64,000 bases of DNA from Candidatus Zixiibacteriota bacterium (GCA_043819555.1 JBDREQ010000020.1:32001-96000); one strand, 5' to 3'. Positions 6,066 to 35,691 are shown, numbered from the stretch's first letter. The notes: generated by a model from the sequence alone, not told the origin. Program-made: numbers and translations.

Positions 6066-6314
6066 GCGCGACAGATAAAGCCATTCTCTCCTCTTTTAAT
6101 AAGCCATTATGGCAAATATGAATTATATTTCAGTATATTTCATGGGTTCCAGAATATTTTTGCAAATTTCTCAAACATAAAGCCATGAATAGGTGTTTCA
6201 TAAATCCCGGAATTTGTTATATTTAGACGGAAATTACTTAAAGGCGCTCAATGATTATAAGCTGATTGCGTACTAATGTTAACGCACAACATTTTCAAAC
6301 AGCAGAAGGTCACT

Positions 6315-8645
6315 ATGAAAAATTCTTGCTTCATTGTATTGCTTTTTATAATGGTTGCCTCCATTAATATTCAGGCTCAGGACAGCGATTGCGGGACAGT
6401 TGTCAATCCCGATCAGGTTGAGCAGGCTTTGAGAATAGAGCGCGAGATGCAATTGGCATCCAAAGTTCTAGGCGCCACAGCTCATATTGAAATCCCGATT
6501 GCTTATCATATTATCCGTCGTACCGATGGAACCGGAGGCTTTTCTTTGACTGATTTGACAGCCTCGACCGATAGCGCCAATATTTTATTTTCTCCGTTAA
6601 ATGTCAGTATTTATCAATATTCATTGGATTATATAGATGATGACGGTTTCTTCTTTGATACCGAAACAAATTCGCGTTTCGATGAACTCCGAAGTATTAA
6701 TGTCGTTCATGAAGCAATAAATATTTATTTCCTGCCTACTGAATCCGGATTCCCGTATTGCGGATTGTCATCGTTTACGTTTTCCGGAACACAGGGGATA
6801 TTAATGAGCAATAATTGCGCTGGAGAAGCTATTATCAATTCCACATTGGTCCATGAAATTGGCCATTATTTTAATTTATATCATACTCATGAAACCGCCT
6901 TTGGTGATGAATGCCCCGATGCGAGTAATTGTTCTGCAGCTGGCGATTTGATTTGTGATACGCCCGCCGATCCAAATCTTTCTGGTCTCGTTGATGCTTC
7001 TTGTGTTTATACCGGGACCGGCACTTCTCCCGCATCATGCGGCTCAGAAACATATAATCCGCAAATCGAAAATATCATGTCTTATTCCCGAAAGTCCTGC
7101 CGTGATTTTCACAGCGATATGCAAATTGATAAATTCAGAACGACTCTTTTGACTCTCCGACCCGAATTAGTCTTTGGCATTGACGGATTTCTTGTGTTAC
7201 CGGGCGCGATTGAAGCGCTCCCGACCGTTGCCGGCCAAACTTCAGATAGCGTTATAAGGATTATTAACACCGCAGCGACTCCATTTGATATTACATCCGT
7301 TTCCACTTCAATCGGAATTATTAGTGTATCCGGTCCTTCGCCAATAACCCTGAATGAAGATGATACCGTTTCTTACCTTGTCAGTTTTGACGCAACTGCC
7401 TTGACCGGTGAATGCGATCTTGGCCCGAGAGAAGATACTGTTATCTTCAATACAACTCATCCGGAAGTGGCAATCGCTTCAATTCCGGTATCACCCACGG
7501 TTGTTTATGCCATCCCGAACGACGAACATCTCACGACCGGTTCCACATGCCTGATTTTTACGGTACCCAACACGCCCGGAATATCTGACCGGACCAGCGC
7601 CGGATTTGTACCGTCCGGGTTTGGCAATATTCTCTTTGATGGCTCTCTATTGATTGGCATTATTGACGGAACCGATACTACAACCTATATGGATTTGTAT
7701 GGGACGGAAGATTTTTCGATTATTGATACTTATGCAGGCGATATTGATGCGGCTGGCCGCAATAGCCAGACAATCAGATATGTAACCAATGATAATCGAA
7801 TTCATGGTTCGGTGAGCTATCATTATGGCTATAATAGCCTTGGGATCGATAGCTGTTCCGCGCTGGAAATAGAATACACTATTTCCAATCCATGCGATAC
7901 AGCCCTTAATATTGTCGCCGGTATTTTCTGTGATTTTGATATTGATAATTCAGGAGATAATGACGCCTTTATAAATGGAGAGATGGTCATAGCCACAGAC
8001 GGGACTGGCGGCGCGGCACAATCAGTGGCCTTAGCGGTCCTTCAAAGTTGTGGCGCCGGGCCAATCCTGAGAATAATCTCAAATCCGAACTTGATATACC
8101 CCACTAATGGGCTGACTGATTCCGATGCCTATCGTGAATTGACCTCGCCCAGCAGTACCGGCTCGTTGAATTCGACTGACGTTTCGTCGTTAATATCTTT
8201 TGGCGCGGTAACGCTTGACCCGGGCGAAACTCAGTTTTTCCAGGCGGCGATAATATTTTCGGGTACCGGTTCTGACGACCTCAATGCCCCTCTCCTTAAC
8301 GCAAGCTCGCTGGCGAAGGTGGTTTTCCCCGATACCGATGGCGACTGCATAACCGATGCTCTGGATAACTGTCCGGGAACTTATAATCCGGATCAGGCCG
8401 ATCAAAACGGGAACAGTATTGGAGATGTATGCGAGTATAAATGCGGTGATGCCAACAGCGACGACCAAACCAATGTCGGTGATGCCGTTTTTATAATTAA
8501 TCATGCTTTTAAAGGCGGCCCGGCGCCCGATCCTTATGAGGCCTGCGATAGCAACTGCGATGAAGCGTGCAATGTCGGTGATGCTGTTTATCTAATCAAT
8601 CATATCTTCAAAAGCGGGCCGGTTCCGTGTGCGGAGTGTGAGTAG
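6315..8645 (+). CDS. Secreted M43 (pappalysin/ulilysin-like) zinc metalloprotease with Ig-like region, thrombospondin type-3 repeat and C-terminal dockerin
   Basis: Signal peptide MKNSCFIVLL...AQ; prodomain Cys-switch-like CGT; HEIGHYFNLYH zinc motif; DTPAD; Met-turn NIMSY; DTDGD...DNCP..YNPDQAD...GDVC; duplicated GDAN.D...NVGDAV.IN..FK.GP dockerin at 8442-8642. Confidence 0.85.
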   Translation: MKNSCFIVLLFIMVASINIQAQDSDCGTVVNPDQVEQALRIEREMQLASKVLGATAHIEIPIAYHIIRRTDGTGGFSLTDLTASTDSANILFSPLNVSIYQYSLDYIDDDGFFFDTETNSRFDELRSINVVHEAINIYFLPTESGFPYCGLSSFTFSGTQGILMSNNCAGEAIINSTLVHEIGHYFNLYHTHETAFGDECPDASNCSAAGDLICDTPADPNLSGLVDASCVYTGTGTSPASCGSETYNPQIENIMSYSRKSCRDFHSDMQIDKFRTTLLTLRPELVFGIDGFLVLPGAIEALPTVAGQTSDSVIRIINTAATPFDITSVSTSIGIISVSGPSPITLNEDDTVSYLVSFDATALTGECDLGPREDTVIFNTTHPEVAIASIPVSPTVVYAIPNDEHLTTGSTCLIFTVPNTPGISDRTSAGFVPSGFGNILFDGSLLIGIIDGTDTTTYMDLYGTEDFSIIDTYAGDIDAAGRNSQTIRYVTNDNRIHGSVSYHYGYNSLGIDSCSALEIEYTISNPCDTALNIVAGIFCDFDIDNSGDNDAFINGEMVIATDGTGGAAQSVALAVLQSCGAGPILRIISNPNLIYPTNGLTDSDAYRELTSPSSTGSLNSTDVSSLISFGAVTLDPGETQFFQAAIIFSGTGSDDLNAPLLNASSLAKVVFPDTDGDCITDALDNCPGTYNPDQADQNGNSIGDVCEYKCGDANSDDQTNVGDAVFIINHAFKGGPAPDPYEACDSNCDEACNVGDAVYLINHIFKSGPVPCAECE

Positions 8646-16558: not shown

Positions 16559-16874
16559 AAGTGGTTCAAACGTTCCTTGTTTTTGAAACAGGAAAGGAGA
16601 ACCGTTATCTTACAACGCAGACAAAATACTCTAAAAAACTCATTGCATAAATTCCGAAAATATCTATTTTAAAATAGATAACCACCTCGTATCCTTCACC
16701 TACTGAAATTCTATTGCCATAGTTCGATAGAATTGGGTATGTCATGGCTAAATCAGTATTTACATTATGAAATTAATTATGTGACAAAGTCGGATTCCGA
16801 AATACTAAATGCGAGCTGTTATAAATACAGAGTATTGATCATTCGGCCATAATAAATTTACCTGGGAGGGCATT

Positions 16875-19634
16875 ATGAAATCATGGAGACATTTTATTGG
16901 TGGCGCCGTTTGTATTCTGACGATCATTGCGGGGATTGACTGCATGGCTCAGGACCCGGGGCTTCCTGATACCGTTAAAATCGAGGGGGGACCGCTGATT
17001 GTCGGAAGATCAATCCCTCTCGCATTTACTGTTGTAAATGATGAATTCGTCCGGGGGAATACATCCGGCCTATTAATTTTCTCAAATGATGGCGGTTGCG
17101 CCAGCTATGATTCGGTCGTTTATATTAATCGCCAAAATGACCCATCTGTTATGGATTTTAGGTTGGTCAGATCGCGAAAGGAAACCTGTATTGGAAATGA
17201 TAGCCTTCATGTCGTCAATGGCACCTGGTTCGGAAATCCCCTGCCTCCCGGAAGTGATCCAATTCTCCTTCTTTATTTCACGGGTATCAACACCGGTCAT
17301 ATAACCATTGATTCTTCCTATTTTCCGCCCGGGGCTCCGTTTGCGTTGCAACGGTGGGATTACATCAATGGCTATACGCCGCAATTTACATCAACCACTA
17401 TTGAGATTATCGAAGGAACATTGCCTCCGGAAATTGCAGTTCCCGATGGTTATCTCTCTACAACCGCCGGAGAAAGCATTAGTTTTGAAATTGGAGGATA
17501 TTCACCTGAAGATTTCCCAATCACTCTTGAACTGATTGGCATGAAAGGTTTCGACGATGACGCAAGGTTACCGGAAAATTTACCAACTTTGAGCGAAGAG
17601 AATCCGGCGCTCTTCGAATGGTATGTTACTTCCAATGACATTGGCATCTGGACCGCCTTATTTAGAGTCTGTGATACCGAGGGATTATGCGTTGTCGACA
17701 GCGTCGTTATTCAGGTTGTGGGAAGCGCACCCTATTTAATTACCATGAACATACAAGAAATAATGGGTGTTTGTAATGCCAACAGTTTAGCCCACGGTAA
17801 TTTCGATGAAGACGACAATCCAGAATTATTTATCAGCGGAACCGGGAGTAATTTAACTCCTACCATGGAGCTGTACGATTTTAATTCTTCGGAAGGTTGG
17901 CAACGAGTATTTGCACATAAAGACCTGGAACCGAAATTTGGCTCACAAGCGGGTTATTTTAATGGCGACAGTAATTTGGATGTTTTCTTAATGGGATTTG
18001 AAAACGGGCCATACCGAGTTCTTACCGCTGAAGGAGATGGCGCTAATTCTTTTGCGCTTTCAGGATTTGAAAATGATGGCCATGTAACGCGCAATATTAT
18101 CAGTGGAGAATTTACGGGTGATAATTATATCGATGTCGCCTCAACATGGCACGACGGTGTTCGGATTTATGCCGGCAATAATCAGGGTGATTTTTCATAT
18201 ATCTCCATAATTCCCACTTCCGACTCTGCGGTTACTGTAAACTCCGCCGATTTTAATGGTGATGGAATCGATGATTTGGCTATTGGTACTAAAAGCGGTA
18301 TAAAAATATATCTTGGCGACGGGACTGCTGGATTTAATGAAGTGGAATTTCATCCACAAGTGTATGCCACTCTGGATGTCGAGATTACCAACAACGGCAG
18401 TGATTTCAATAACGATAATATTTACGATCTGTGTATCTCCACGCCATCTGTTGGAGGCGAAAGAAGTGAAATTGTTATTTATCTTGGCAATGGGGATGGT
18501 ACGTTCAGCCAGCATGTGATTCGCGATATCACGGGACAAGTTTTTGGCAATTGCGTTGGCGATTTTAATAACGATAGTCGACTCGATATTGCGTTCGTCA
18601 ATGGCTCCCAAAAATATGTCGGTATTTTATTTGGCGAAGGGGATGCCACATTTTCAAATGAGATGAGATATGAAGTTAAAAATCATATCCCCAGATATAT
18701 TGATTGTTTTGATGCTGATCTGGATGGCGATCTCGATATAATAGTCGCATCTATTACCGTGGACCAGGGAAATTCGCTTTATTATCTGGAAAATCAGACA
18801 AATCCAGATGGTTACTTGCCCCAGTCACTAACATTGACCGCATTTGATAACGCCACCATTGAACTCAATTCTGCGGACGGGAAAGTATTCAATCGGATAA
18901 AAAACGTGATGCCTTCGGGAGATTATTATCGCCGCAATGTCGATCTTGATGATGATATGGATGATTTTATCTCCATGGGCGTCGTCGAAAATGAGGCTTA
19001 TTCGCTCAAAGCGTTCCCTAAATCAGATAAATCAATAGGAGAGACATTCTCACTGGAATTTACTATTAATGGGCGGCTCTACCGCCTGGCCAAAGATATG
19101 CCAATGCGGTCCGAAGGTTATCAGTTTACGTTTTACGCAGGCGATGATTTTCCCGCTATGCCTCGGCCGGGGAAAATTACGCATATAAATCCGCCAACCT
19201 TTATGTGGCAGGGGGAAGGACCGTTTCATTTTCAATTAGCCCGCGACTATGATTTCAATAACGTACTTTATGATTTGACAATTTACGGAAACGAATATAC
19301 GACCGACGGCCTGTTGGACGTGATTGACACAACTACATATTATTGGCGGATTAAACCGGTGGGCGAGCCCGAATACGATTGCCTGTATGTTATCAGTTTA
19401 TACCTCAATCCGGGCAATCATTGCGGCGACGCCAATGATGATGGAATTGTAAACATCGGCGATGCGGTATTTCTCATCAACCATATATTCAAAGGCGGAC
19501 AGGCGCCATATCCTTTAGAAATAGGCGATGCCAATTGCGATGGTAACACAAATGTAGGAGACGCTGTTTATATCATTAATGTTGTATTCAAGGGCGGACC
19601 GGGTATATGTGACAATTGTGATATAGCATGGTAG
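16875..19634 (+). CDS. Secreted multidomain protein: cohesin-like N-domain, Ig-like domain, FG-GAP/VCBS beta-propeller, FN3-like domain, C-terminal dockerin
   Basis: Signal peptide; multiple (A/G)DFNxDGxxD and GNGDG repeats; YYWRIKP; duplicated GDAN.DG..N(I/V)GDAV dockerin from 19422; SD GGAGG. Confidence 0.8.
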   Translation: MKSWRHFIGGAVCILTIIAGIDCMAQDPGLPDTVKIEGGPLIVGRSIPLAFTVVNDEFVRGNTSGLLIFSNDGGCASYDSVVYINRQNDPSVMDFRLVRSRKETCIGNDSLHVVNGTWFGNPLPPGSDPILLLYFTGINTGHITIDSSYFPPGAPFALQRWDYINGYTPQFTSTTIEIIEGTLPPEIAVPDGYLSTTAGESISFEIGGYSPEDFPITLELIGMKGFDDDARLPENLPTLSEENPALFEWYVTSNDIGIWTALFRVCDTEGLCVVDSVVIQVVGSAPYLITMNIQEIMGVCNANSLAHGNFDEDDNPELFISGTGSNLTPTMELYDFNSSEGWQRVFAHKDLEPKFGSQAGYFNGDSNLDVFLMGFENGPYRVLTAEGDGANSFALSGFENDGHVTRNIISGEFTGDNYIDVASTWHDGVRIYAGNNQGDFSYISIIPTSDSAVTVNSADFNGDGIDDLAIGTKSGIKIYLGDGTAGFNEVEFHPQVYATLDVEITNNGSDFNNDNIYDLCISTPSVGGERSEIVIYLGNGDGTFSQHVIRDITGQVFGNCVGDFNNDSRLDIAFVNGSQKYVGILFGEGDATFSNEMRYEVKNHIPRYIDCFDADLDGDLDIIVASITVDQGNSLYYLENQTNPDGYLPQSLTLTAFDNATIELNSADGKVFNRIKNVMPSGDYYRRNVDLDDDMDDFISMGVVENEAYSLKAFPKSDKSIGETFSLEFTINGRLYRLAKDMPMRSEGYQFTFYAGDDFPAMPRPGKITHINPPTFMWQGEGPFHFQLARDYDFNNVLYDLTIYGNEYTTDGLLDVIDTTTYYWRIKPVGEPEYDCLYVISLYLNPGNHCGDANDDGIVNIGDAVFLINHIFKGGQAPYPLEIGDANCDGNTNVGDAVYIINVVFKGGPGICDNCDIAW

Positions 19635-20398: not shown

Positions 20399-21487
20399 AT
20401 GCCCAAAATTGATCAGTTACTAAAAATTGTAAAACAGGCAAACGCATCGGATCTTCATTTGAATGTTGGTACCGTACCTATAGTTAGAGTAAATGGCCAG
20501 CTTGAGAAAACTCGAACAAACAAATTAACAGAAGAGAGCATTCGTCAACTAATTTATGAAATCCTCACTGACAGCCAGATTAAACAATTCCAAAAAACAG
20601 GCGATCTTGATTTTTCTTATGGGTTGACGGATCTGGCAAGGTTCCGTTTAAATATCTATAGAACTTTTCATGGTATTGGAGCGGCAATTCGATTAATAAA
20701 TGAAGATATTACAGATCTGCGCACTTTGGGATTCAGTGATTCATTAGCCAGATTGACTGAAAATAAATCCGGAATTGTTCTGGTCACTGGCCCAACCAAC
20801 AGCGGTAAGACGACGACTCTTGCAGCGATGGTTGATAATATTAATACCCATTTTTCCAGGCATATTATAACGCTGGAAGATCCTATCGAAATAGTCCACG
20901 AAAATAAGAATTCCTTGATATCACAACGCCAGATCGGCCTACATTCCGATTCATTTCCCAAAGCATTACGGGCGGCATTGCGGGAAGATCCTGATGTCAT
21001 TTTGGTTGGTGAGATGCGTGATACCGAAACAATCTCGCTGGCTATTACAGCCGCCGAAGTAGGGCTTCTTGTGCTGGGAACGCTTCACACGCGGACTGCC
21101 GCCACAACGATAAATCGCATCATTGATGTATTTCCGCCGGAGCAACAGCAGCAAACACGTATTATGCTGGCCGATACGCTGATGGGCGTGGTATCCCAGC
21201 AATTGGTCAGGAAAGCCGATGGATCTGGCAGGACGGTTGCTTTCGAACTCTTAATAAGAACAACTTCACTCGTAAGCCAGATTCGAGATGCCAAAACTCA
21301 TCAGATACCGACCACAATCCAGACCGGACGCAAGCAGGGAATGCAACTTCTTGATAATCATTTGAGAGAACTAACCGAGACTGGAATTATAACGACCGAG
21401 GAGGCCATGCGAATTGCCACTGAACCATCACAATTTATGGCGTCATCGAACACCGGGAAATTAGTTCAGGAGCTGACACAGGTTTGA
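20399..21487 (+). CDS. pilT: PilT/PilU-family type IV pilus ATPase
   Basis: ASDLHL, GPTNSGKTTTLAAM, TLEDPIE, ALREDPDVILVGEMRD, GTLHT, RIIDVFP, GMQ. Confidence 0.85.
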   Translation: MPKIDQLLKIVKQANASDLHLNVGTVPIVRVNGQLEKTRTNKLTEESIRQLIYEILTDSQIKQFQKTGDLDFSYGLTDLARFRLNIYRTFHGIGAAIRLINEDITDLRTLGFSDSLARLTENKSGIVLVTGPTNSGKTTTLAAMVDNINTHFSRHIITLEDPIEIVHENKNSLISQRQIGLHSDSFPKALRAALREDPDVILVGEMRDTETISLAITAAEVGLLVLGTLHTRTAATTINRIIDVFPPEQQQQTRIMLADTLMGVVSQQLVRKADGSGRTVAFELLIRTTSLVSQIRDAKTHQIPTTIQTGRKQGMQLLDNHLRELTETGIITTEEAMRIATEPSQFMASSNTGKLVQELTQV

Positions 21488-23625
21488 AGACAGTCCAGAC
21501 AAAAAGAAAGAGATTGGATGAAATCCTCCTGGCGGAGGGAAACATCGATCAGGAACAGATTCTTGAAGCGCTTATGCGCCAGAAAGCTCATGGCGGCAGA
21601 TTTGGTACTCAGCTACTTTATTATCGTTATGTTGATGAACGCAACCTGGTAAGAGCTTTAACCATCCAGCTAAACTGTGCCGGTATAGTTCTGTCGGATA
21701 CCAAAATCGATGAAAATGTCATAAAAATGCTGCCGGTCAAACACGCAGTTGCAAGAAAGATTATACCATTTAAGTATGATGAAAAATCAAACACTCTAAG
21801 TATCGCATGTGAAGATCCGACTGATCTAACCCTCATCAACGATACAAATTACCTGGTACAAGGTAAAAATATAAAGCTCTACGTTGCTACCGAATTGGCG
21901 ATTGATGCGGCGATCAACAAATACTATCTTGGCCGTGATATCAATCTTGAGGATAGTCTGTCGCTGGAATTGCCAGACCTGACTCTTATAAATGATTTGC
22001 CAGATGAATCGGACGATGAAAGAATCCGCAGGGATAAACAAGCCCCAGGCAAGTCAGTATTGATAATTACTGATGAGGAATACTCCGGATCGCTCTTTCA
22101 GAGTGTTCTTGAACGGGATAAATTCGAAGTTGCGATCTATGATACTTGTGATAAGGCCTTGACTTTAATTGAAGAACGAAACTTTCACGCAATCCTGATA
22201 AAAAAATCAGTTCCCGATGATCATAAAAAACTTACTGATCGGTTGAGGAAAATATCTCCTCGGACAAAGATTAGATTATTCGATACTTCGTCGTCGCTTT
22301 TATGGGATGATCAGCCGGATAACCTGACAGATTCCATCCTGAGGCAAAATCTCGATTTATTTTTATCAATGATGGCTTCTCGCGAGAACATTAACGAAAA
22401 CCACAGCGGTACGGTTGGCCGATATGTATATAAACTCTGTTGTAAGCTTGGATTATGCGGTCAGGATCGAGCTGTAATTACAAATGCGGCATACATTCAC
22501 GATCTAACCAGATATTATTATCGCGCCAATGACACTTCCGATTATGCGTCACTGATAAAGAAGACTATTAAATTGTCAGAGTCGGTCAATTTTCCTCTGG
22601 TAATGACTGATATGCTTAAGGCTATGTATCAAGACCTGCGGCCCGAGTATAAGAAAACTCTTCCCCTGGAAATATTGGGAGGAAACATACTGACAATTGT
22701 TGACCTATTTTGTGAAAATGTTCAGCTTAATCAAAAGCTAACCCTGGAGAAATTTGAGGCTGTAAAAAAACGGCTGCGAGATTATTCAAATAAGCTTTTC
22801 CTCCCCGATGTGGTAGAAGCGTTTATCGGTATGGTACAGGAGGAAGTCCTGTTTTTCCAAACCTCCGGAATATCCACGCAAATAATGCTCTACTCGAACG
22901 ATCAGGAAGCTTCCCATCCCCTTGAACTCAGATTAAAAAACGAAAACTTCATAGTTATTTCAGAATCTTCTTCCGATTCATTCTTAAACCTCTATCATCG
23001 AAGCCGGCCTGATATCCTGGCATTGGTCATTAAGGGAAACCCCGCTCAAGTATCAAAGAAGATAAACGAATTTAGTCAAAAAGGTGTGAACTATAAGCAA
23101 ACGCCTACAATTCTGCTGGCCGAAACCAGAGTATTATCAGAGGCTGCAACCTTTTTCGATCAGGGGATTAAGGATGTCATTGCACTTGATGGCAACCATG
23201 ATTTACTTGTAGTTCAACTTAAGAAAATACATACAAGACTTATTGAACAAGCTAAGCAGAAAAATGACCCGGATGGGAAATTTGCTGGTGCCAGCGGACG
23301 ATTATCAGATATTAATCTTATCGACCTTATACAGGCATTGGGTCCCGGGCGGAAAACCGTCAAGATAACTATTACCGGGGAAACTCTATCACAAGATAAA
23401 GTGATTATATACCTGAAAAGGGGCAGTATAATCTTCGCCAAAACTAACAGCCTTAGCGGCGCTGATGCAGTTTATGAAGGAATGGCTTGGACGGATGGTC
23501 GGTGGCAGGTTGAACCGGTTGAGGAAACCGATCTTCCTGAACCCAACATTACGCTTTCTAATGACTCCATCCTAATGCAAGGCGCTTATCAACTTGATGA
23601 AAAGATGAAAGCCGGTAAGCTCTAA
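21484..23625 (+). CDS. MshEN/GspE-N-terminal domain + REC-like + degenerate HD + REC-like + DUF4388 signalling protein
   Basis: RLDEILLAEG...ALMRQ...RFGTQL and IACEDP (GspE N-domain); AAYIHDL and ILTIVDLF..PDVVEAF (HD-GYP-like helices); SGRLSDINLIDLIQ..G.IIFA...G.DAVY...W..G.W (DUF4388); TTG start overlapping pilT stop. Confidence 0.7.
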   Translation: MKTVQTKRKRLDEILLAEGNIDQEQILEALMRQKAHGGRFGTQLLYYRYVDERNLVRALTIQLNCAGIVLSDTKIDENVIKMLPVKHAVARKIIPFKYDEKSNTLSIACEDPTDLTLINDTNYLVQGKNIKLYVATELAIDAAINKYYLGRDINLEDSLSLELPDLTLINDLPDESDDERIRRDKQAPGKSVLIITDEEYSGSLFQSVLERDKFEVAIYDTCDKALTLIEERNFHAILIKKSVPDDHKKLTDRLRKISPRTKIRLFDTSSSLLWDDQPDNLTDSILRQNLDLFLSMMASRENINENHSGTVGRYVYKLCCKLGLCGQDRAVITNAAYIHDLTRYYYRANDTSDYASLIKKTIKLSESVNFPLVMTDMLKAMYQDLRPEYKKTLPLEILGGNILTIVDLFCENVQLNQKLTLEKFEAVKKRLRDYSNKLFLPDVVEAFIGMVQEEVLFFQTSGISTQIMLYSNDQEASHPLELRLKNENFIVISESSSDSFLNLYHRSRPDILALVIKGNPAQVSKKINEFSQKGVNYKQTPTILLAETRVLSEAATFFDQGIKDVIALDGNHDLLVVQLKKIHTRLIEQAKQKNDPDGKFAGASGRLSDINLIDLIQALGPGRKTVKITITGETLSQDKVIIYLKRGSIIFAKTNSLSGADAVYEGMAWTDGRWQVEPVEETDLPEPNITLSNDSILMQGAYQLDEKMKAGKL

Positions 23626-23964: not shown

Positions 23965-24723
23965 CTATTTAAGCAATATCATCTGACGGGATGCGCTTTG
24001 ATTGTTTCCCGTTAAGCGATAGGTGTAAACGCCGCTGGGGAGATTATCTCCTGAGAATATATACTCATAATTTCCCGCTGGTTTGTGGCCCAAATCAATT
24101 TTCTCAATTACTTGTCCGGAAAGATTAAAAACCTCGAAACTATATTGCCCCGCCTTTTTAACAGTATATAAAAACGTCGTCGATGGATTAAAGGGATTGG
24201 GGTAATTCTGTTCCAGAATAAAATGAGTTGGCAGCACGCCAAATGGATCGTCCACCGATAGGGGGATAAAATCAATATATCCATCCTTAAGAGTCACGCT
24301 TAAAGGAACGCCGATGGAATCAACTAATTCAATAATTCCGGAGAATTTGACATAAGCCGAATCAAGGGCATCCGAAGCTGCTTGAAGATTAAACTGAAAA
24401 AGCGGTTCCCCGGCCGGAAGAGTCAGAGGTGATGAAAAATCCTCCCAGATGACAAATATTTTTCCGTCGACCACGTTTGTGGTCCACGACTGAATATATG
24501 ATGTTGCCATAGTATGAAACTCAACTTTGGATGCGTCGAATTCAATAAAGATTTGAACTCCAGCCACATCAGTAAAATCTTCTGTCAATAGTTTCATCTG
24601 GACGATATCCGAAGGCGCCGCCGTCGCACTGGTGATTTCAAGCGTCACCGCAAACGCCGATGATGGGACTACAAGCAGGAGCGCGAAGAGCAATCCCCAA
24701 TATTTACGACCCATCTTATTCAT
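23965..24723 (-). CDS. Secreted single-cohesin protein with T9SS type A/FlgD-like C-terminal sorting domain
   Basis: Signal peptide; cohesin pattern DVAGVQIFIEFDASKVEF...IWEDF...LFQFNL...ELVD..G...L.DG; CTD LEQNYPNPFNPST...VFNLSGQ...SGVYTYRL...MILLK; SD GGAGG. Confidence 0.75.
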   Translation of the reverse strand: MNKMGRKYWGLLFALLLVVPSSAFAVTLEITSATAAPSDIVQMKLLTEDFTDVAGVQIFIEFDASKVEFHTMATSYIQSWTTNVVDGKIFVIWEDFSSPLTLPAGEPLFQFNLQAASDALDSAYVKFSGIIELVDSIGVPLSVTLKDGYIDFIPLSVDDPFGVLPTHFILEQNYPNPFNPSTTFLYTVKKAGQYSFEVFNLSGQVIEKIDLGHKPAGNYEYIFSGDNLPSGVYTYRLTGNNQSASRQMILLK

Positions 24724-24755
24724 AAAACCTCCACAGGACAGAGAAATTTATTTTC

Positions 24756-24784
24756 AAGAGGACCGGTCCCATACCGGCCCTCTT
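24756..24784 (-). other. Intergenic GC-rich stem-loop between scaffoldin-like gene and single-cohesin gene
   Basis: AAGAGGACCGGT / ACCGGCCCTCTT inverted repeat; no U-tract in the sense (minus) direction. Confidence 0.55.
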
Positions 24785-24799
24785 TACTTTACAAAAGTT

Positions 24800-27700
24800 T
24801 TATTTCAAAAGCATCATCTTTTTTGTCTGTTTGAATGTTCCCGACGAGAATTTATATAGATAAATTCCCGAAGTAACGCTCATACCATTATCGTCCGTAC
24901 CATTCCAGACAAATTCAATAATGCCGGCTTCATGATAACCATGAAAAGTTCTAATCTTCTGTCCCATAATATTATAGATATCAAGCGAATATTCCCCGGA
25001 CTCTCTCATGGAAGCCATTATCTTCGTTTCCGGGTTAAACGGATTAGGAATATTCTGTTCGAGACTATACTGGGCCGGGAGCGTGGTTCCGCTCTTTGTT
25101 AATCGGCCATTAATGATATTTAATCGATAGTTGAATCCTGCCTCATCAGCCAATTCGGCACCCGAAATAGTTATTTCACTGGATCCGCCAAACTCTCCGG
25201 TAGTCCTGAACGAGAGTTCCGCAATAGCCTGCGAACCGATAAGATTTAAGGGCGCTTCGAAATCTTCCCATATGAGATGGAAAGCGTTATCGGTTCCGTT
25301 GAGAGTTGTACCGGACAAGATATCGGAATTGACTCCGGTAAATTGGACTTCATTGCCGTCAAATGAAATGTGAAGTTCAATGCCTGCCAGGTTTTCGACA
25401 TCAGAAATATAAATCGGTACTGTGACAATATCATTGGGATGAATAAAAGCCTCTCCAATTTCGATTGTAACCGGTTCCACTGTGGAAAATAGTGGCTTGG
25501 CCGTCAGCGGAGACCAGGTTGCGTTCACATCACCCAATCTAATTCCATAAAAATGCGGCACAACTATATCTTCGTTAACGATCGAAATATTTTTCGATCG
25601 CGGCGCCAGCTGCCAGTTAGTCAATGTTATAGCATATGCGCCGTCGATAAAAGTCCAATTTCCGCCGGGAAGAGCTCCCAATTGTGCCAGATAACGACGG
25701 ATCGAAATAACATCCGAGACGCTGACCGTATTGGTGAGGTTTACGTCGGCGGCGATTAATTGGTAACCAAGGTTAAATCGCTCAACGTAGGCTATATGTC
25801 GGCGAATTTTAATTACGTCGGCAACTGAAACACCGGGGGCATCCTCATCCAACCATGGTGTTATTGAATATCCGCCGATTTCCAAGTCAACAAAGCTATA
25901 TTCACCGGCTCCATCGGTTATATCCGAGCCGCTCGCTTGTCCGCTTAAATCGACATTAACGCCTTCAATGGGAATGTCATTTCCATAATATACAACCGTT
26001 CCCGAAATATCGAACAAGGGATCAATGATTGTAACTTCACCGTTACAGAAACCGAGTGATAAATTCGGGTTGCCAAATTCATCAACAATTTCGTTCCCAT
26101 CAAGCCAGACAATCGGAGATATTTCTCCAACATTGCCAACCGAGGTAAACCAGAGCGTCATCAAAACACCGCCGTCAGGAACGGTAATAGGATTGCCAAT
26201 ATTATCCCAAATGAAGTGAATATAGCCATTCCCATTGATATCGGACAAGTAACCAATAGTGGCTCCGACCATATAGTTTGAAGTCACCGAATCAGCCGCC
26301 AGAACAGCATTTAAATACGTTAAATGCAATTCCACTCCGGCCACTCCGGCGATTTGATAAGCATACACCGGAACGCCTATTGCCAAACCTTGAGGCCCGT
26401 TAACCTCTGCGATATCAATAGCGCATTCATCACAATTGGCAATATTGAAAGAAAGAGTCAAAACCTGGGGAGAATGAGAAGCGTCAGCATTAACGGTTAT
26501 AGTCGTTTGCTGTGGTCCAAAACTGAGTTCCGCGGTATTAACTTCAAAAGATACAGTCGCGGGGGCGGAACCTGAAGTAGCCGAGAGAGTAACTCCGGTA
26601 CCCTCTATCGCGGTCCAATCCATCGCGCCTGTACCGATATTAGAAATATCAAAATCACCGGTCACGATCGTACCCATACATGTATTTCCGAAATTAATTG
26701 AATTTGTCGATAGTGCCAAATCAGGCATTCCATAGACATCAAACAGCACCGGGATTTCAGTCGGGCTGACTAATGAATTGGATGCGAAAGTAGCCGTTGC
26801 AATATGAACCCCTTCAGGTAAACCCGCCGGATTGACACTGAATTCAATGAAATCACCGGACATTCCTGAGGTTGGCGCCAGGGCTACCCAAAGCGCATCA
26901 TCGGTTACCGACCAGGCAAGATTGCCATAACATGAATTTGTGATTTCAAAATTCTGAGGCGGGGGAGTCGTTCCAAGTTCGGCGCTGAAATAAACTGTAT
27001 CAACAGGGAAAGTGAAACATGGCAATCCCGTTATATCGATACTACCGGAAAAAAATTCAGTCGCGCGGGAAGATGCATCCGACTGGATAAATAAAAACTC
27101 AAACGCCGGTGGAATAAAAGCGGAATCTATCGGAACCATTTGAGTTGCCGCGGATGGATCAATTGAAAAATACATTTTCGCAAGTAATCCATTTCCGGTT
27201 GCCAAATATGGTTGAGTGATTCGTAATCCCTCAATATTGACAGTGTTGGCATCATTATCTATCGTTGCCAGGTGCTCTTCCCATGATTCTATGCGGCTTC
27301 CTGAAAATGATACCGAATCACAACTGAGGCCGGTTCCATTATACCAAAGTGGAATATTGAAATTACCGATTTCGACAAAATTCTGATAATTTAACTCAAC
27401 CACAACCTGCCCGCCTGCGGTGGCCATGACATTGGATACCCACAGAGTATCAGCGGCCGGTGTGTCATCAATAACTGTCAAATTAATCGTGACATCCTGG
27501 GGAGCATTATCAGTACCGAAATCGGCATTAAATGTTACAACATCGCTGTAATTTCCCGGTGTCAATCCGGTTAAATTGGCAAAAAATGTAATAGTTCGAT
27601 TTCCAGTGCCGCTGGTCGGATTGATCGTTAACCAGGCCTCATCCTTGCCGGTGATTGTGAAATTTAAAGTTGGGCCACCGCAATTACTGACATTTATTGC

Positions 27701-28600
27701 GCTATTTAAAATGTCTCCGTCGAATCCGCTGAAATTAATCTCGTTTGCAGAAAGTGCCAAACAAGGCGGGGGTGGGTCTAAAACCAAAGTTACAGCTATT
27801 TCCTGTGGCGAATTAGTTGCAGCCGGGTCGCTAACAGTAATAGTACCATTGTGAGTGCCTGCCAGTAAGCCAGTCTGATCAATATCGACCGTTACCGTGG
27901 CCGGACCAGTCCCTGAAGCAGAACTTAGAGTAATCCAGCTGTCAGCTGTGGCGGTCCAGTTTAGCGTAGGGGCGCCGGTATTGGAAATATCAAATGTTTG
28001 CGATGGGGGCGGAGTTCCATCCTGCACGGCGTTAAAATCAAGCGTGACCGGATCCAGAGCTATCGTTGGGCCAGATACCGGTTCTCCAATTGTAATCGTC
28101 CCTGTTTTGAACTGTGGTACAAAAGTAGATCCGCCGGTTAAAGCTAATATAAATGGCGAAGATTCATTGTATGAAGTGGAATCCAGAGTGATTACTTGAT
28201 CTGCTGCCCCGGGTGCTGGGGTAAACCAAACAGTAAAAATATTTCCCGTTCCAGGCTGCAAATACGCTTCGAATATGATAATTGCCCCGACCTGGAATTT
28301 TTGGTTAACATTGTCGATTTCTGAAGGCTTATTGCCAACATAATCGATTCGTGAACCGCCAAAAGTAACCGAGTCGCATGTAATGTCGGGAGAATCCCAT
28401 ATGAATGGCATACCGAAACCGCCCAGTTCTTCATCATTATAAAGTTCGATTGGAACGGAAAAAGGATCGGTGCTTCCGGATGGAATACTTACCGATTCGA
28501 CCCAAGCCGTATCGGCGATACCAGGATCTGGAACCGCATATACGGACGCGCCGAGGATAAAAACAGCAACTATGACGAATAAAACAATTTTATTCCCCAT
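24800..28600 (-). CDS. Scaffoldin-like secreted protein: 4 cohesin-like + 4 BACON/Ig-like + carboxypeptidase-regulatory-like + split dockerin + T9SS/FlgD-type CTD
   Basis: Signal peptide; two DT.WV...CDSV.F.GSRI domains; two VP.Y....AG.ELH...IW domains; four ISN.G...L.W/F......W....SG repeats; GVSVADV..IRR...AADVN....VSVSDV..IRR...GIRLGDVN; LEQNIPNPFNP...YNIMGQ...WNGTD...SGIYLY...KKMMLLK; SD GGAGGT. Confidence 0.8.
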   Translation of the reverse strand: MGNKIVLFVIVAVFILGASVYAVPDPGIADTAWVESVSIPSGSTDPFSVPIELYNDEELGGFGMPFIWDSPDITCDSVTFGGSRIDYVGNKPSEIDNVNQKFQVGAIIIFEAYLQPGTGNIFTVWFTPAPGAADQVITLDSTSYNESSPFILALTGGSTFVPQFKTGTITIGEPVSGPTIALDPVTLDFNAVQDGTPPPSQTFDISNTGAPTLNWTATADSWITLSSASGTGPATVTVDIDQTGLLAGTHNGTITVSDPAATNSPQEIAVTLVLDPPPPCLALSANEINFSGFDGDILNSAINVSNCGGPTLNFTITGKDEAWLTINPTSGTGNRTITFFANLTGLTPGNYSDVVTFNADFGTDNAPQDVTINLTVIDDTPAADTLWVSNVMATAGGQVVVELNYQNFVEIGNFNIPLWYNGTGLSCDSVSFSGSRIESWEEHLATIDNDANTVNIEGLRITQPYLATGNGLLAKMYFSIDPSAATQMVPIDSAFIPPAFEFLFIQSDASSRATEFFSGSIDITGLPCFTFPVDTVYFSAELGTTPPPQNFEITNSCYGNLAWSVTDDALWVALAPTSGMSGDFIEFSVNPAGLPEGVHIATATFASNSLVSPTEIPVLFDVYGMPDLALSTNSINFGNTCMGTIVTGDFDISNIGTGAMDWTAIEGTGVTLSATSGSAPATVSFEVNTAELSFGPQQTTITVNADASHSPQVLTLSFNIANCDECAIDIAEVNGPQGLAIGVPVYAYQIAGVAGVELHLTYLNAVLAADSVTSNYMVGATIGYLSDINGNGYIHFIWDNIGNPITVPDGGVLMTLWFTSVGNVGEISPIVWLDGNEIVDEFGNPNLSLGFCNGEVTIIDPLFDISGTVVYYGNDIPIEGVNVDLSGQASGSDITDGAGEYSFVDLEIGGYSITPWLDEDAPGVSVADVIKIRRHIAYVERFNLGYQLIAADVNLTNTVSVSDVISIRRYLAQLGALPGGNWTFIDGAYAITLTNWQLAPRSKNISIVNEDIVVPHFYGIRLGDVNATWSPLTAKPLFSTVEPVTIEIGEAFIHPNDIVTVPIYISDVENLAGIELHISFDGNEVQFTGVNSDILSGTTLNGTDNAFHLIWEDFEAPLNLIGSQAIAELSFRTTGEFGGSSEITISGAELADEAGFNYRLNIINGRLTKSGTTLPAQYSLEQNIPNPFNPETKIMASMRESGEYSLDIYNIMGQKIRTFHGYHEAGIIEFVWNGTDDNGMSVTSGIYLYKFSSGTFKQTKKMMLLK

Positions 28601-28698
28601 CGCCCACCTCCGGTGAAAGATTAACGGTTTTGTCCCCTAAAAAAGGAAGGGGGATTGGCATCCCTGCATGTATTTTTTCTTAAGACATGTCTGCCAAT

Positions 28699-28726
28699 AA
28701 TATAAGGAGGTTTTTTTAAATGTCAA
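28699..28726 (-). promoter_or_regulatory. sigma70 promoter for the scaffoldin-like operon
   Basis: TTGACA (28726-28721), 16 bp, TATATT (28704-28699). Confidence 0.5.
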
Positions 28727-28775
28727 CATGCAAAAGTTTGCGGATGTTGTTAAATAAGATAGGCTTTGGGGAAAA

Positions 28776-32727: not shown

Positions 32728-35691
32728 TCACTGCTTCATTTCGCAGCATTTTTTATATTTCTTGCCCGAACCGCATGGGCAGGGATCATTGCGCCCGACT
32801 TTTGGCTGATCTCTCTTAATCGGTTTTTGTTTGCCTCTCTTGCTCGCTTCCGCCATAGGGCTTTTGCCCAAATTACTTTCAGCATCGCCGGCGCTTTGTT
32901 CTGCGGATGAATATCCCATCCCTGTTGTATCGGCATGGCTGGCGACCAGATGGGGCATGGGCCGGTCGGTCCGTGGTTTTTGCGCCGCCGATTGAACTTG
33001 CATGCGGAAGACTTTTCCCACCGTATCCCGATCAATATTATCGATCAGAGCAGAAAACAAGGTAAAGGCTTCTTTCTTATATTCCATTAGTGGATCGCGC
33101 TGTCCATACGCCCGCAGTCCGATTCCGGTGCGAAGCTCGTCTATTTCATTAAGATGATCGCGCCAGTATTGATCAATGGTTACCAGGGCCGCGTATCTTT
33201 CCAAACGGCGCATCAGTTCCGGCCCATAAGCGTCTTCCTTGTTCTGATAAATTACCAAAGCCGCCTGCTTTATCTGTTCGAATAATTTTTCACGGGTCAA
33301 ATCCTGAATATCATCATCCTTAAATTTCAAATCGAGAAGGAAGGAATGCAAAACCTGTCTGCGTAATTCAAATAGATTCCAATTTTCCGGGTATTCTTTT
33401 TCAGGACAATTAGCCTCAATAATAGCTTCAATATTGATATCGATCATTTCCATAATCGTAGATTTAATATCTTCGTTTTCCAAAACCCGCAGGCGCCGTC
33501 CATAAACCACTTCGCGCTGCTGATTCATAACGTCGTCATACTTCAAAGTATGTTTGCGGATGGAGAAGTTTTGCGCTTCAACTCGTTTCTGGGCCCGTTC
33601 AATTGCCTTTGAAATCATGCTGTGAGTGATAACTTCGCCCTCTTCGACGCCAAGTCTGTCCATTATGCCCGCGATGCGATCCGAACCAAACAGACGCATA
33701 AGATCGTCTTCCAAGGAAAGGAAAAACTGCGATGAACCGGGATCGCCCTGGCGTCCTGAACGTCCTCGCAGCTGCCGATCGATGCGCCGCGATTCATGCC
33801 GTTCAGTTCCGAGGATATGCAGCCCCCCCGCCTCTACGACGGCCTCACTGAGTTTAATATCCGTGCCTCGTCCGGCCATGTTGGTTGCGATTGTTACTGC
33901 TCCGGTTTGTCCCGCTTCGGAGACAATTCCTGCTTCCTGCTGATGACGCTTGGCATTTAACACATTATGCTTGATGCCTGTTTTCTGCAACATCCGCGAC
34001 AGGATTTCACTTACTTCAACAGAAATCGTACCGACCAGGACAGGTCGACCGATTTTATTCATCTCCACAATTTTATTTATAATAGCGGCGTATTTTTCGC
34101 GCCGCGTTCGGAAAATTTCATCCTCCATATCATCACGAATGACTGGGCGATCAGTTGGTATGACAACCACATCTAACTTATAAATATCAAAAAATTCGGA
34201 CGCTTCTGTTTCCGCGGTACCGGTCATACCGGCCAGTTTTTTGTACATCCGGAAATAATTCTGGAGAGTGATTGATGCCAGAGTCTGTGTCTGAGCTTCA
34301 ACTCGAACGCCTTCTTTGGCTTCAATGGCTTCGTGCAGGCCATCACTAAAACGCCTGCCCGGCATGAGCCGTCCGGTGAATTCATCGACTATGAGGACCT
34401 TTCCTTCCTGAAGCACATATTCATTATTCTTTTCATAAAGAGAATAAGCTTTCAGGAGCTGGCTGATATTGTGGACTTTTTCGGATCGCTCCCCATGAAT
34501 TTTATAAATCGCGTCAGTTTTTTGAGTTTTTTCCTCAACCCCCATCGATTCGTCCCCTTCAATCATCGACAGCTCGGTGGAAAGATCGGGGATGACAAAT
34601 AATTCCTGTACATCTGCGGGAAACTGAGAACGGCCATTGTCGGTCAAATCAATTGAATGCTCCCTTTCGTCAATGACATAATAAAGCTCTTCATCGAGTT
34701 CAAACATTTTTTTATCGCGCAACAATGCCCCTTCGGTCTGCTGAATCAGCTTTTTAATGCCTGACTCTTTTTCCATACGCAGGAGCTTTTTGTGCTTGGG
34801 TGCGCCGCGCCGCGCCGACAATAGGCGCAAGCCGGCTTCGTATTCGTTTCCCTCCTTAAGGAATTTTTCCGCTTCGGTGATATACTGGTTTACCAGGTTG
34901 TTTTGTTTTCTGACCAATTGATCCACATACGGCTTCATTTCTTTGTAACGTCCCGTATCGCTCGATTCAACTGTTCCCGATATGATCAGCGGCGTTCGAG
35001 CCTCGTCAATCAGGAGGGAATCGACTTCGTCGACAATGGCGTAATTATACCCGCGATGCACCCGGTCTTCAGCCGTTTGAACCATATTATCGCGGAGGTA
35101 ATCAAAACCGAATTCATTATTTGTGCCATGCGTGATATCACAATTGTATTCAACTTTGCGCTCCGCCGGAGACATGTCGTGCTGAATACATCCCACCGTC
35201 AAACCCAGAAATTCATAGATTTTGCCCATCCATTGTCTGTCGCGCAAAGCGAGGTAATCGTTGACGGTGACGACATGGACCCCAAAGCCGGTCAGCGCAT
35301 TAAGATAAACCGGTAATGTCGCCACCAGCGTTTTACCTTCACCGGTTGCCATTTCGGCTATTTTGCCCTGATGAAGGACGATCCCACCAATTAGCTGAAC
35401 ATTGTAAGGAATCATATTCCATTCGGTCTCTATTCCAGCAACTTCCCAGGATTGACCGTAAAGGCGTTTACAGGCTTGCTTGACCAACGCGAACGCTTCG
35501 GTGAGAATATCTTCGAGTGTCTCGCCGTTGGCCAGTCGTTTTTTGAATTCTCCGGTTTTTGCTTTTAGCTCGTCATCGGTAAGAGAATCAAAAAGGTCGT
35601 AATGGCTGTTTATTTCGTCTACAATTGGTTTAAGTTTTTTTATATCGCGATCGTGCTTGGTGCCGAACATTTTTGTAATCAGACTTTTCAT
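32728..35691 (-). CDS. secA: Preprotein translocase subunit SecA
   Basis: [48 protein letters not shown]-terminal [18 protein letters not shown]. Confidence 0.98.

Follow-up and report, generated by a model that had tools for sequence, protein, structure and literature searches.

A putative T9SS-anchored scaffoldin-like protein of Zixibacteria with two predicted cohesin-dockerin specificities

The Zixibacterium gene P0001 encodes what is probably a T9SS-anchored, non-catalytic scaffoldin-like protein with two orthogonal cohesin-dockerin pairs, the binding of which is predicted. Four cohesin modules in two classes (A and B) are confirmed for this protein, and it most likely combines two sockets for client proteins with a self-linking or anchoring module. 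Four equivalent cohesins, as implied by the initial annotation, do not fit our observation that only A1 and A2 track the client dockerin. The window analyzed here is a DNA stretch of 64,000 nucleotides from a zixibacterial host, in line with an 86% identical protein that carries the Zixibacteria name.

The P0001 open reading frame of 1,266 aa is preceded by a GGAGG-type ribosome-binding site and encodes, in this order, SP-CohA1-(BACON)2-CohA2-(BACON/Ig)2-CohB1-X/dockerinB-CohB2-CTD, with a very acidic overall composition (D+E 11%, K+R 2.7%). Its place and module boundaries agree with those first annotated to within a few codons:

24800..28600, minus strand: scaffold gene P0001 (ORF, module map)
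28535..28600, minus strand: Sec signal peptide, about aa 1-22 (read from the sequence by eye)
28085..28519, minus strand: cohesin A1, aa 28-172, class A, type I-like fold (AF2, VIA, Foldseek)
27470..28069, minus strand: two BACON/Ig spacer repeats, about aa 178-377 (Pfam BACON_2 and BACON; limits by eye)
27029..27457, minus strand: cohesin A2, aa 382-524, class A (homology to A1 only)
26441..27025, minus strand: second pair of BACON/Ig spacer repeats, about aa 526-720 (weak Pfam/NCBIfam; limits by eye)
26021..26428, minus strand: cohesin B1, aa 725-860, class B (four-domain model, profile)
25505..26017, minus strand: X-module with inserted split dockerin, class B (Pfam, model, profile, CipA alignment)
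25091..25480, minus strand: cohesin B2, aa 1041-1170, class B (best stretch of Pfam Cohesin, VIA)
24803..25075, minus strand: T9SS type A C-terminal sorting domain (CTD), aa 1176-1266 (TIGR04183)

Pfam detects Cohesin PF00963 in two stretches of P0001 (E 1.4e-15, 58 bits against a cut-off of 24.1) together with BACON_2 (5.5e-18) and FlgD_ig (5e-7), and Por_Secre_tail and CarboxypepD_reg score below their cut-offs. The first spacer pair contains the best BACON_2 stretch (288-369) and a weak BACON match (217-271), and the second a weak Pfam HYDIN/VesB Ig match (626-716) and an NCBIfam choice_anch_D match below cut-off; only some of the four BACON/Ig copies are thus backed by these databases, with spacer limits drawn by eye. 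The mapped modules cover the chain, and no catalytic family, no CBM family (CBM3 included), and no Dockerin_1 (PF00404) match was found on it by Pfam at E<=0.01. P0001 therefore combines several cohesins with the lack of a catalytic domain, like CipA-type scaffoldins, and carries both hallmarks of T9SS type A cargo, a signal peptide (by eye) and a CTD above cut-off (TIGR04183 of NCBIfam, 34.1 bits against 23). Both the sorting domain and the absence of a catalytic domain or CBM had been proposed initially and hold up. An 11/12 sigma-70-like site at 28726-28699 was set aside as a promoter because 15 such sites were found where 14.8 are expected. A metatranscriptome with 9% of the words yielded only short low-depth contigs over the region and no evidence of transcription.

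The four cohesin folds first read from the sequence are borne out by structural modeling and homology. Modeled alone by AF2 (pLDDT 96) and compared to 48,161 PDB representatives, A1 retrieved nothing but cohesins among its top 20 matches, with the OlpA cohesin 3ul4 as the best VIA match (Z 18.2, rmsd 1.9 A, 136 aligned) and a Foldseek E-value of 3e-9. Within a model of the B1-X-Doc-B2 cassette (pLDDT 90.8), B2 matches 6kgf (C. acetobutylicum CohA2) with Z 18.9 and rmsd 1.4 A, and B1 matches a ScaG cohesin with Z 13.9. The nine-stranded jelly-roll of solved cohesins is therefore seen in the models of A1, B1, and B2 and extends to A2 solely through its homology to A1 (30% identity, phmmer E 8e-15); as modeled, A1 and B2 have a type I-like cohesin fold with Z of about 18-19. 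Profile A6 of class B matches PDB cohesins down to E 1e-9, and the B cohesins are nearer to type I cohesins in sequence than the A cohesins (E 1e-9 versus 5e-3). A predicted complex of A1 with a class-A dockerin and 2 Ca, run without controls, reached a best score of 0.16 relative to a mark of 0.32 and speaks neither for nor against binding.

The X-module is a CarboxypepD_reg-like sandwich into which a split class-B dockerin is inserted. This dockerin has two helices with R-R at positions 17/18, but its first Ca loop is incomplete without the N-terminal half, so that the two complete contiguous Ca loops of type I dockerins are not found; a conserved G-D-V motif is placed after the last X strand. 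Its profile matches PDB dockerins at E 2e-6 and the helices are present in the cassette model, and we predict that it works like a dockerin despite the incomplete loop. B1, X, and helices together superpose on 4fl4, a CipA chain of 309 residues, with 228 residues aligned, Z 16.5, and rmsd 9.0, and the CipA chain 3kcp also aligned with the X-dockerin region. A search with the X-dockerin alignment profile gave 40,531 matches at E<=0.001 and 1,056 at 1e-30 that are dominated by many-repeat CarboxypepD-like proteins and therefore give no family size; relatives were instead characterized from hand-picked proteins (28 through Pfam, 37 for architecture). A search for related loci over genome contigs returned mostly CTD-only matches.

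The census of other dockerin proteins in the genome gave 61 PF00404 matches and 73 dockerin proteins, 59 of which carry the module at their C-terminus. Pfam peptidases make up 16 of these 59 candidate clients (S8 x4, M28 x5, C10 x2, M1, M6, M14, M43, and trypsin-like), 6 further ones have an HExxH motif, and 14 are propeller proteins. GH or CBM families were found by Pfam in none of the 73, and the genome (97% complete) yielded neither GH5 nor GH9 in searches where positive controls scored, nor GH48 in a search without positive control, so that the dockerin-bearing cellulases typical of CipA-type systems (GH48, GH9, GH5) were not found. The original suggestion that the complex may be proteolytic or adhesive rather than cellulolytic is supported by these candidate clients. 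A crude signal-peptide test was passed by 47/59 clients compared to a background of 46%. Among 57 aligned terminal dockerins, D/N at Ca-loop positions 1/3/5/12 is kept in 53-57 per position, and both repeats share V/I-G at 10/11, I-N at 17/18, and K/R at 22, giving a two-fold symmetric recognition surface. Class-A dockerins match PDB dockerins to E 4e-10 and resemble type I dockerins in having F-hand Ca loops in duplicate and a symmetric pair of helices.

Across 151 genomes, class-A cohesin and class-A dockerin both occur in 148 and are both absent from the same 3, as judged by profiles that were all built from the source genome and its family and bias counts in distant genomes low; per-genome dockerin numbers, taken from the best 39 scored, are to be read as "at least". 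The 3 genomes without class-A modules still have SprA and come from 2 families, so they may reflect one event, with kin not being independent. B-cohesins occur in 19/151 genomes, a set identical to the genomes in which X-dockerin B matches strongly; another 5 X-dockerin matches, which are weaker, come without a B-cohesin at E<=1e-15. This co-occurrence is partly trivial because both modules sit in one polypeptide. With client dockerins in 148/151 genomes, class B is therefore not a general client socket. The candidate interface residues differ accordingly between the classes: dockerin B carries R-R at 17/18 of its helices in 12/16 and 14/16 sequences and acidic residues are conserved in cohesin B (E 23/30, E 27/30, and W-D/E-D), whereas dockerin A is without the basic pair and cohesin A is small/apolar at the matching strand-3 positions. 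We place these residues on the putative binding face by analogy with type I structures. Judged from these residues, the basic pair of dockerin B fits the acidic residues of cohesin B, and dockerin A does not.

Full-length orthologues of P0001 (P0003-P0015) have exactly 2 A and 2 B cohesins with an A1-A2 spacer of varying length, and this full A-A-B-B form was found only in family f1 of our samples, whereas the class-A client system is phylum-wide. P0001 is moreover one of 8 T9SS-tagged A-cohesin proteins in its genome, so the initial description as the "core" of a complex is too strong. Class-A cohesin folds also occur as stand-alone proteins without an anchor, and the fold therefore need not mean a surface socket.

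Three further genes of the window are of interest:

23965..24723, minus strand: P0002, 252 aa, signal peptide, single class-B cohesin (24268-24654), and T9SS CTD (Pfam, NCBIfam)
6276..8645, plus strand: M43 metallopeptidase with C-terminal class-A dockerin (8430-8642) and without CTD, candidate client (Pfam, terminal-dockerin census)
16875..19634, plus strand: FG-GAP propeller with N-terminal class-A cohesin (16962-17411) and C-terminal class-A dockerin (19410-19631), without CTD, candidate client/adaptor (Pfam, cohesin profile)

P0002 starts 76 bp downstream of P0001, and its orthologue lies directly downstream of the scaffold in 8/11 informative relative loci; it is a candidate anchor for the X-dockerin of P0001. 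The FG-GAP protein had been listed as a dockerin client; its dockerin is real, but the annotation needs correction for the protein's own A-type cohesin.

We propose that P0001 would be exported by Sec, directed by its CTD through SprA, and attached to the surface after CTD removal by the PorU sortase; components of this step are present in the genome, and the process is modeled on Bacteroidota. A1 and A2, spaced by the BACON/Ig stalks, would then capture Ca2+-loaded class-A dockerins of about 59 secreted proteins. Both partners in this step are present and their binding is what we infer, with mainly peptidases and beta-propellers as clients. X-dockerin B may bind a class-B cohesin of another molecule, either B1/B2 of a second scaffold or P0002, and such links could chain or tether scaffolds like the CipA X-dockerin II does with anchoring scaffoldins. 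Clients with both A cohesin and A dockerin, an architecture that we observe, might extend or branch the assembly. The outcome would be a proteolytic/adhesive coat of the cell surface in which P0001 is a family-specific add-on to the phylum-wide class-A system.

The T9SS machinery anticipated by the initial annotation is there in part. SprA (602 bits, cut-off 200) and PorU (623 bits, cut-off 420, with a GHG...SC dyad-like motif pair) are clearly encoded, and the PorV/PorQ family has 10/18 matches over cut-off in 8 frames. The PorV beside PorU reaches 171 of the 250 bits of a strict model and the best PorW 88 of 250, and GldM (0/11 and 0/10) and GldN (0/11), both among the core genes named initially, were not found in searches where no positive control passed the cut-off, including GldM in 8 other genomes. 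Judging by these genes, the T9SS of this Zixibacterium appears to be non-canonical. The scaffold model offers no route over the outer membrane for its CTD-less clients, a point against it in a genome with SprA and PorU present and GldM/N undetected. In a rival reading, which we consider unlikely, the class-A dockerin would (also) serve as a tag for export: cohesin-CTD proteins would pick up the clients in the periplasm and pass SprA together with them, or a stand-alone cohesin of the periplasm would deliver them. This idea draws on the CTD being found in 0/59 terminal-dockerin proteins, though two C-terminal tags exclude each other in any model, and on minimal SP-CohA-CTD proteins (two of 273 and 277 aa, plus one with two cohesins). 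It also draws on a stand-alone SP-CohA gene that comes immediately after a TPR lipoprotein gene in 30/30 loci examined across the phylum. However, we rejected this TPR protein, which a weak match (E 2.8e-7) had suggested as PorW/SprE, since it ranks 16th of 21 in the genome and the Atlas gives only generic TPR clusters, and in 12/30 loci it follows what is presumably a PEP-CTERM-like gene (motif read by eye). The genome also has two secretin clusters. One of them includes a GspE/PilB ATPase, GspF/PilC, and a pair of pilin-like genes; it could work as an exporter of type II-like design and export the clients instead.

A bolder version that we place on the unlikely side holds that, throughout the phylum, the class-A dockerin is a C-terminal tag in addition to the CTD: carriers would catch dozens of CTD-less proteases and propellers, possibly in the periplasm, and export or display them via a T9SS without detectable Gld motor, and the class-B pair would link a self-extending mesh. 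If true, the dockerin would be a secretion signal of the clip-on kind, and diderms would have, at the scale of a phylum, an analogue of the cellulosome that displays proteases.

It seems improbable that the cohesin folds are Ig-like spacers or S-layer-like blocks of a stalk or adhesin that binds no enzymes, with the B cassette locked intramolecularly under the CTD. In favor of such a structure, the pTM of 0.73 for the cassette suggests fixed packing, the four cohesins share only 15-30% pairwise identity, and the (CohB)-X-dockerinB-CohB-CTD tail is portable, being found on S8 and C11 peptidases and beta-helix, LVIVD, and FG-GAP proteins. A CohB-X-dockerinB-CTD tail also occurs outside the phylum sample, where 7/8 genomes are without a class-A dockerin match. 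A mere stalk would, however, leave the 59 intact symmetric terminal dockerins and the exact presence match of A cohesin and dockerin unexplained, and A1 is far closer to cohesins (Z up to 18) than to pilin/adhesin Ig folds (Z ~10). Finally, a single-specificity scaffoldin with four sockets for the same client dockerins and P0001 as central organizer is very improbable—all four modules are cohesin-like and B is even nearer type I than A, but the rarity of B cohesins relative to client dockerins, the match of their acidic residues to R-R of dockerin B and not to dockerin A, and the restriction of the full architecture to one sampled family all speak against it.

Among the closest known counterparts of the favored scaffold with two specificities is Clostridium thermocellum CipA with the anchoring scaffoldins SdbA, OlpB, and OlpA. 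Shared traits are the type I-like fold, client cohesins upstream of a cohesin-X-dockerin unit of other specificity, and a neighboring single-cohesin protein with a surface anchor. Compared to CipA, P0001 has only two client cohesins (30% identical), neither CBM3 nor cellulases, spacers made of folded BACON/Ig repeats rather than Pro/Thr linkers, a dockerin inside the X-module with a split first loop, and a T9SS CTD instead of SLH in a diderm host. Amylosome and mucinolysome reportedly pair scaffoldins of low valency with numerous dockerin proteins and act on targets other than cellulose, mostly in Bacillota.

The general idea of a CTD-anchored cohesin scaffold with dockerin peptidases is already in print for Cloacimonadota: a cellulosome-like complex was predicted in silico for Ca. 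Stygibacter (Williams et al. 2021, PMC8542988), with a non-catalytic multi-cohesin protein with C-terminal CTD for surface attachment and signal-peptide enzymes with C-terminal dockerins, including an S8 peptidase. The scaffold described there, a chain of 3,755 aa, combines tandem cohesins with CBM2/CBM3, and GH18 and GH57 are among the clients named (PMC8542988), whereas P0001 has no CBM and the Zixibacterium no GH client among 73. Further differences of the zixibacterial system are its ~59 clients, the two classes of cohesin, the X-dockerin within the chain, the BACON spacers, and the occurrence throughout the phylum. For the planctosome of Nemodlikiaceae, a cohesin-dockerin assembly of peptidases at a diderm outer membrane was hypothesized with a single-cohesin anchor and adaptor tethered by a lamin-tail domain, unlike the T9SS CTD of P0001 (Andrei et al. 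2019, PMC6461901). Low-valency scaffoldins, many dockerin proteins, and non-cellulose targets are similarly found in microbes termed "scaffoldin-containing", among them Paenibacillus guangzhouensis and Limihaloglobus sulfuriphilus, but these are mostly Bacillota with no T9SS anchor described in the section consulted (PMC11557425), and the word Zixibacteria is absent from that paper. No report of a Zixibacteria cohesin, dockerin, or T9SS was found in the literature covered, largely the main text of open-access papers.

If the predicted binding holds, an uncultured widespread phylum would use connectors of the cellulosome type to arrange secreted proteases by the dozen on its outer membrane, extending the cellulosome principle from Gram-positive degradation of plant polysaccharides to protein degradation by diderms, on a scale like that of large cellulosomes. 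The two candidate orthogonal cohesin-dockerin pairs, small modules that are easy to express, might also serve designer scaffolds. Such a system would bear on the capture of detrital protein in anoxic sediments; exported peptidase genes of Zixibacteria have been reported in Baltic sediments (PMC6365825).

The open reading frame P0001 lies where the initial annotation had placed a multi-cohesin scaffold (24800-28600, minus strand) and encodes 1,266 aa. Its Pfam matches comprise Cohesin (two stretches, E 1.4e-15), BACON_2 and FlgD_ig, besides weak ones to CarboxypepD_reg and Por_Secre_tail, and the same search returned no catalytic domain, CBM or Dockerin_1. The proposed T9SS type A C-terminal sorting domain (CTD) passed the TIGR04183 cut-off, and the guess of a Zixibacterial origin holds because proteins of 86% and 51% identity both bear the name candidate division Zixibacteria. 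Identity among the four cohesins is 15-30%, and two profiles separate them into class A (A1 and A2) and class B (B1 and B2).

The model of A1, built from a 38-row alignment, reached pLDDT 96, and all 20 top matches among 48,161 PDB representatives were cohesins, led by C. thermocellum OlpA (Z 18.2, rmsd 1.9 Å, 13% identity); Foldseek was concordant. Pilin and adhesin Ig folds came next at Z of about 10-11; that P0001 is a purely structural stalk or adhesin is a reading that we consider unlikely. A second model, covering aa 722-1172 from 16 rows (pTM 0.73, pLDDT 90.8), places B2 close to C. acetobutylicum CohA2 (rmsd 1.4 Å, Z 18.9) and B1 at Z 12.6-13.9 to cohesins. The suspected cohesin fold was thereby recovered for A1, B1 and B2, and A2 is assigned by homology to A1 (sequence comparison, 30% identity, E 8e-15). 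The internal dockerin, split and inserted in an X module (X-dockerin B), is a variant dockerin: position 12 of its two helices is D in all 16 rows, and its second Ca loop is complete, but the first loop is without its start, which an invariant G-D-V that follows the last X strand would complete in space. Its profile matched solved dockerins at E 2e-6, and model residues 2-253 (B1, X module and helices) aligned over 228 residues (Z 16.5, rmsd 9) with the CipA chain of 4fl4/3kcp, which we take to be the cohesin-X-dockerin II end of CipA.

P0001 works like a scaffoldin but is not a cellulosomal primary scaffoldin, because its system has neither CBM3 nor cellulase clients. The closest printed case is an in-silico complex of Ca. 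Stygibacter, whose scaffold combines cohesins, CBM and CTD and whose dockerin proteins include peptidases and GHs (PMC8542988), followed by the planctosome (PMC6461901). Zixibacteria go unmentioned in a genome survey of cellulosome producers (PMC11557425), and we found no literature on Zixibacteria with dockerin or cohesin in open-access main texts. P0001 is a real feature and a variant of an already known scaffold type; added here are the split into two classes, the size of the set of clients, and the question of how clients without a CTD are exported.

We consider it fairly probable that P0001 is a surface-anchored scaffold whose A1 and A2 would capture peptidases and propellers with class-A dockerins, and whose X-dockerin B would join a B cohesin, either on another scaffold or on P0002, the 252-aa product of the next gene downstream. 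Among 151 genomes of the phylum, own genome included, the class-A dockerin and class-A cohesin profiles each matched 148, and the same three genomes lacked both (G088, G105 and G123; 94-96% complete, two families); these three carry SprA, and their marginal PF00404 matches number 0, 0 and 2, respectively. The X-dockerin-B profile matched 24 genomes, 19 strongly (E<=1e-55) and 5 weakly, and the 19 are exactly the genomes in which the class-B cohesin profile found a match. Such co-distribution is support rather than proof, because related genomes are not independent samples, the profiles favor their own family and B modules frequently occur as fusions. What it does rule out is B cohesins as the general client socket of the phylum, since they occur in 19 genomes compared to 148 with class-A dockerins. 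Dockerin B has R-R at positions 17/18 where dockerin A is without a basic pair; in B cohesins, acidic residues are conserved in strands 3, 6 and 8, and A cohesins have G/A, T/G and P/G at matching strand-3 positions, which presumably lie on the binding face as in type I complexes. This chemistry agrees with two separate pairs, A-A and B-B; that the four domains, all of them cohesins but of two profiles, are equivalent sockets is very improbable.

The genome-wide dockerin census suggested by the initial annotation yielded a large set of potential clients. The genome (3.35 Mb, 97% complete) has 61 PF00404 matches, and a profile built from them found 73 proteins, of which 59 end in the dockerin. 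Two half-dockerins were left out of the alignment; the remaining 57 fall into a single main class in which the two repeats resemble each other (V/I-G at 10/11, I-N at 17/18 and F-K at 21/22). Such repeat symmetry underlies dual binding in type I dockerins (PMC12484212). By Pfam (71 proteins at E<=1e-5, two window proteins at E<=0.01), 16 of the 59 clients are peptidases (S8 x4, M28 x5, C10 x2, M1, M6, M14, M43 and trypsin-like) and 14 are propeller proteins (FG-GAP x4, LVIVD x4, PQQ x3, WD40, SBBP and Rax2), while six more have HExxH without a Pfam peptidase match. None of the 73 matched a GH or CBM family, and GH5, GH9 and GH48 (the last without positive control) were not found in the genome. 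A crude hydrophobicity test detected signal-like stretches in 47/59 clients compared to 650/1,415 background ORFs.

None of the 59 clients carries a CTD, in a genome with 55 CTD-bearing proteins by our own profile and 45 TIGR04183 matches. Client capture in the periplasm followed by piggy-back export would accommodate this, yet we rate it as rather improbable. The expected T9SS core genes were found in part: SprA (602 bits, cut-off 200), PorU (623 bits, cut-off 420) and the PorV family are present (10 of 18 matches over cut-off; eight frames in the genome), and the PorU gene adjoins a PorV-family gene. PorU keeps a GHG...SC motif pair, which resembles the C25 dyad. In Bacteroidota, PorU cleaves the CTD and cargo is attached to A-LPS (PMC8545088, PMC4804311). 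Searches without positive control gave no match to GldM or GldN in 11 genomes, nor to GldM in 8 other records including Ignavibacteria, Calditrichia and KSB1, and the best PorW match reached 88 of 250 bits, which argues for a partial or divergent T9SS. One T9SS locus (C25:3854-19986) encodes PorU together with a PorV-family fusion protein of 896 aa, an M6-like protein bearing a CTD, and a protein of 1,108 aa in which one stretch weakly resembles SprA. Of two secretin clusters, one is PilQ-type; the other (C73:158753-166599), a second type IV filament cluster with GspE/PilB ATPase, GspF/PilC, two pilin-like genes, a PilM-like gene and the secretin, has no tested gene over the strict cut-off and is a candidate exporter of CTD-less proteins.

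A stand-alone class-A cohesin with signal peptide directly follows a TPR lipoprotein gene at all 30 loci considered across the phylum (the best 30 of 47 matches in 61 genomes), 12 of which have a PEP-CTERM-like gene upstream. In the own genome the pair is:

C3:172353-174428 (16357-18429 of locus L012), TPR lipoprotein gene (512 aa), then class-A cohesin (174 aa, no CTD, no dockerin)

It might serve as a dockerin receptor in the periplasm or belong to a PEP-CTERM/exopolysaccharide system. The TPR lipoprotein is not the PorW candidate of the genome, where it ranks 16th of 21 matches.

P0001 had been called the core of the complex, but full class-A cohesins number 16 in this genome, spread over 14 proteins, eight with CTD (10 domains), four with a terminal class-A dockerin and two stand-alone, and P0001 is therefore one of several anchors. 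Among 40 relatives, near-full-length matches are confined to its own family; the orthologues P0003-P0015 (1,267-1,793 aa) all have two A and two B cohesins, X-dockerin and CTD and differ in the A1-A2 spacer, and P0016 is without A2. The (B1)-X-dockerin-B2-CTD tail is portable: peptidases of the S8 and C11 families and beta-helix, LVIVD and FG-GAP proteins also terminate in it. P0002 consists of signal peptide, one B cohesin and CTD, and its orthologue comes next after the scaffold in 8 of the 11 relative loci that were informative; the other three are long forms, with the scaffold's own B2-CTD 41-43% identical to P0002.

The gap between the two genes (24724-24799; folding energy -25.3 kcal/mol, no shuffle control) holds a 12-bp stem-loop without U tract. 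Intergenic stem-loops set protein ratios in clostridial cellulosome operons, and by analogy this one could set the scaffold:P0002 ratio. Upstream (28601-28730), a sigma-70-like site (11 of 12; site count at chance level) lies about 100 nt before the P0001 start, followed by two small leader hairpins.

The FG-GAP protein in the window (16875-19634, plus strand) has the dockerin ascribed to it, at its C-terminus, and also an N-terminal class-A cohesin of its own, with which it could chain or branch. Three more proteins combine cohesin and dockerin (contigs C48, C53 and C76). On C48 (L005:7875-12907), a 1,260-aa ORF stops inside an A-cohesin start and the following frame carries on with cohesin-dockerin-CTD; a frameshift or assembly error has likely divided a single gene here. 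Two terminal dockerins (C68 and C76) are halves as well. Elsewhere (C29:101-8981), a protein of 2,537 aa carries a single A cohesin and another copy of the B1-X-dockerin-B2-CTD tail, and the gene after it is lipoprotein-like with a B cohesin at its end; a co-directional cluster of cohesin, dockerin and CTD genes (C72:5947-29266) includes a 2,966-aa Big_9/cadherin-repeat protein with terminal dockerin. Other neighbors of P0001 in the window are ordinary:

20399-23625, PilT ATPase and MshEN/DUF4388 protein
32728-35691, SecA
37923-40112, GH57 4-alpha-glucanotransferase
51016-53949, TMEM260-like O-mannosyltransferase homologue

The last of these might glycosylate surface proteins.
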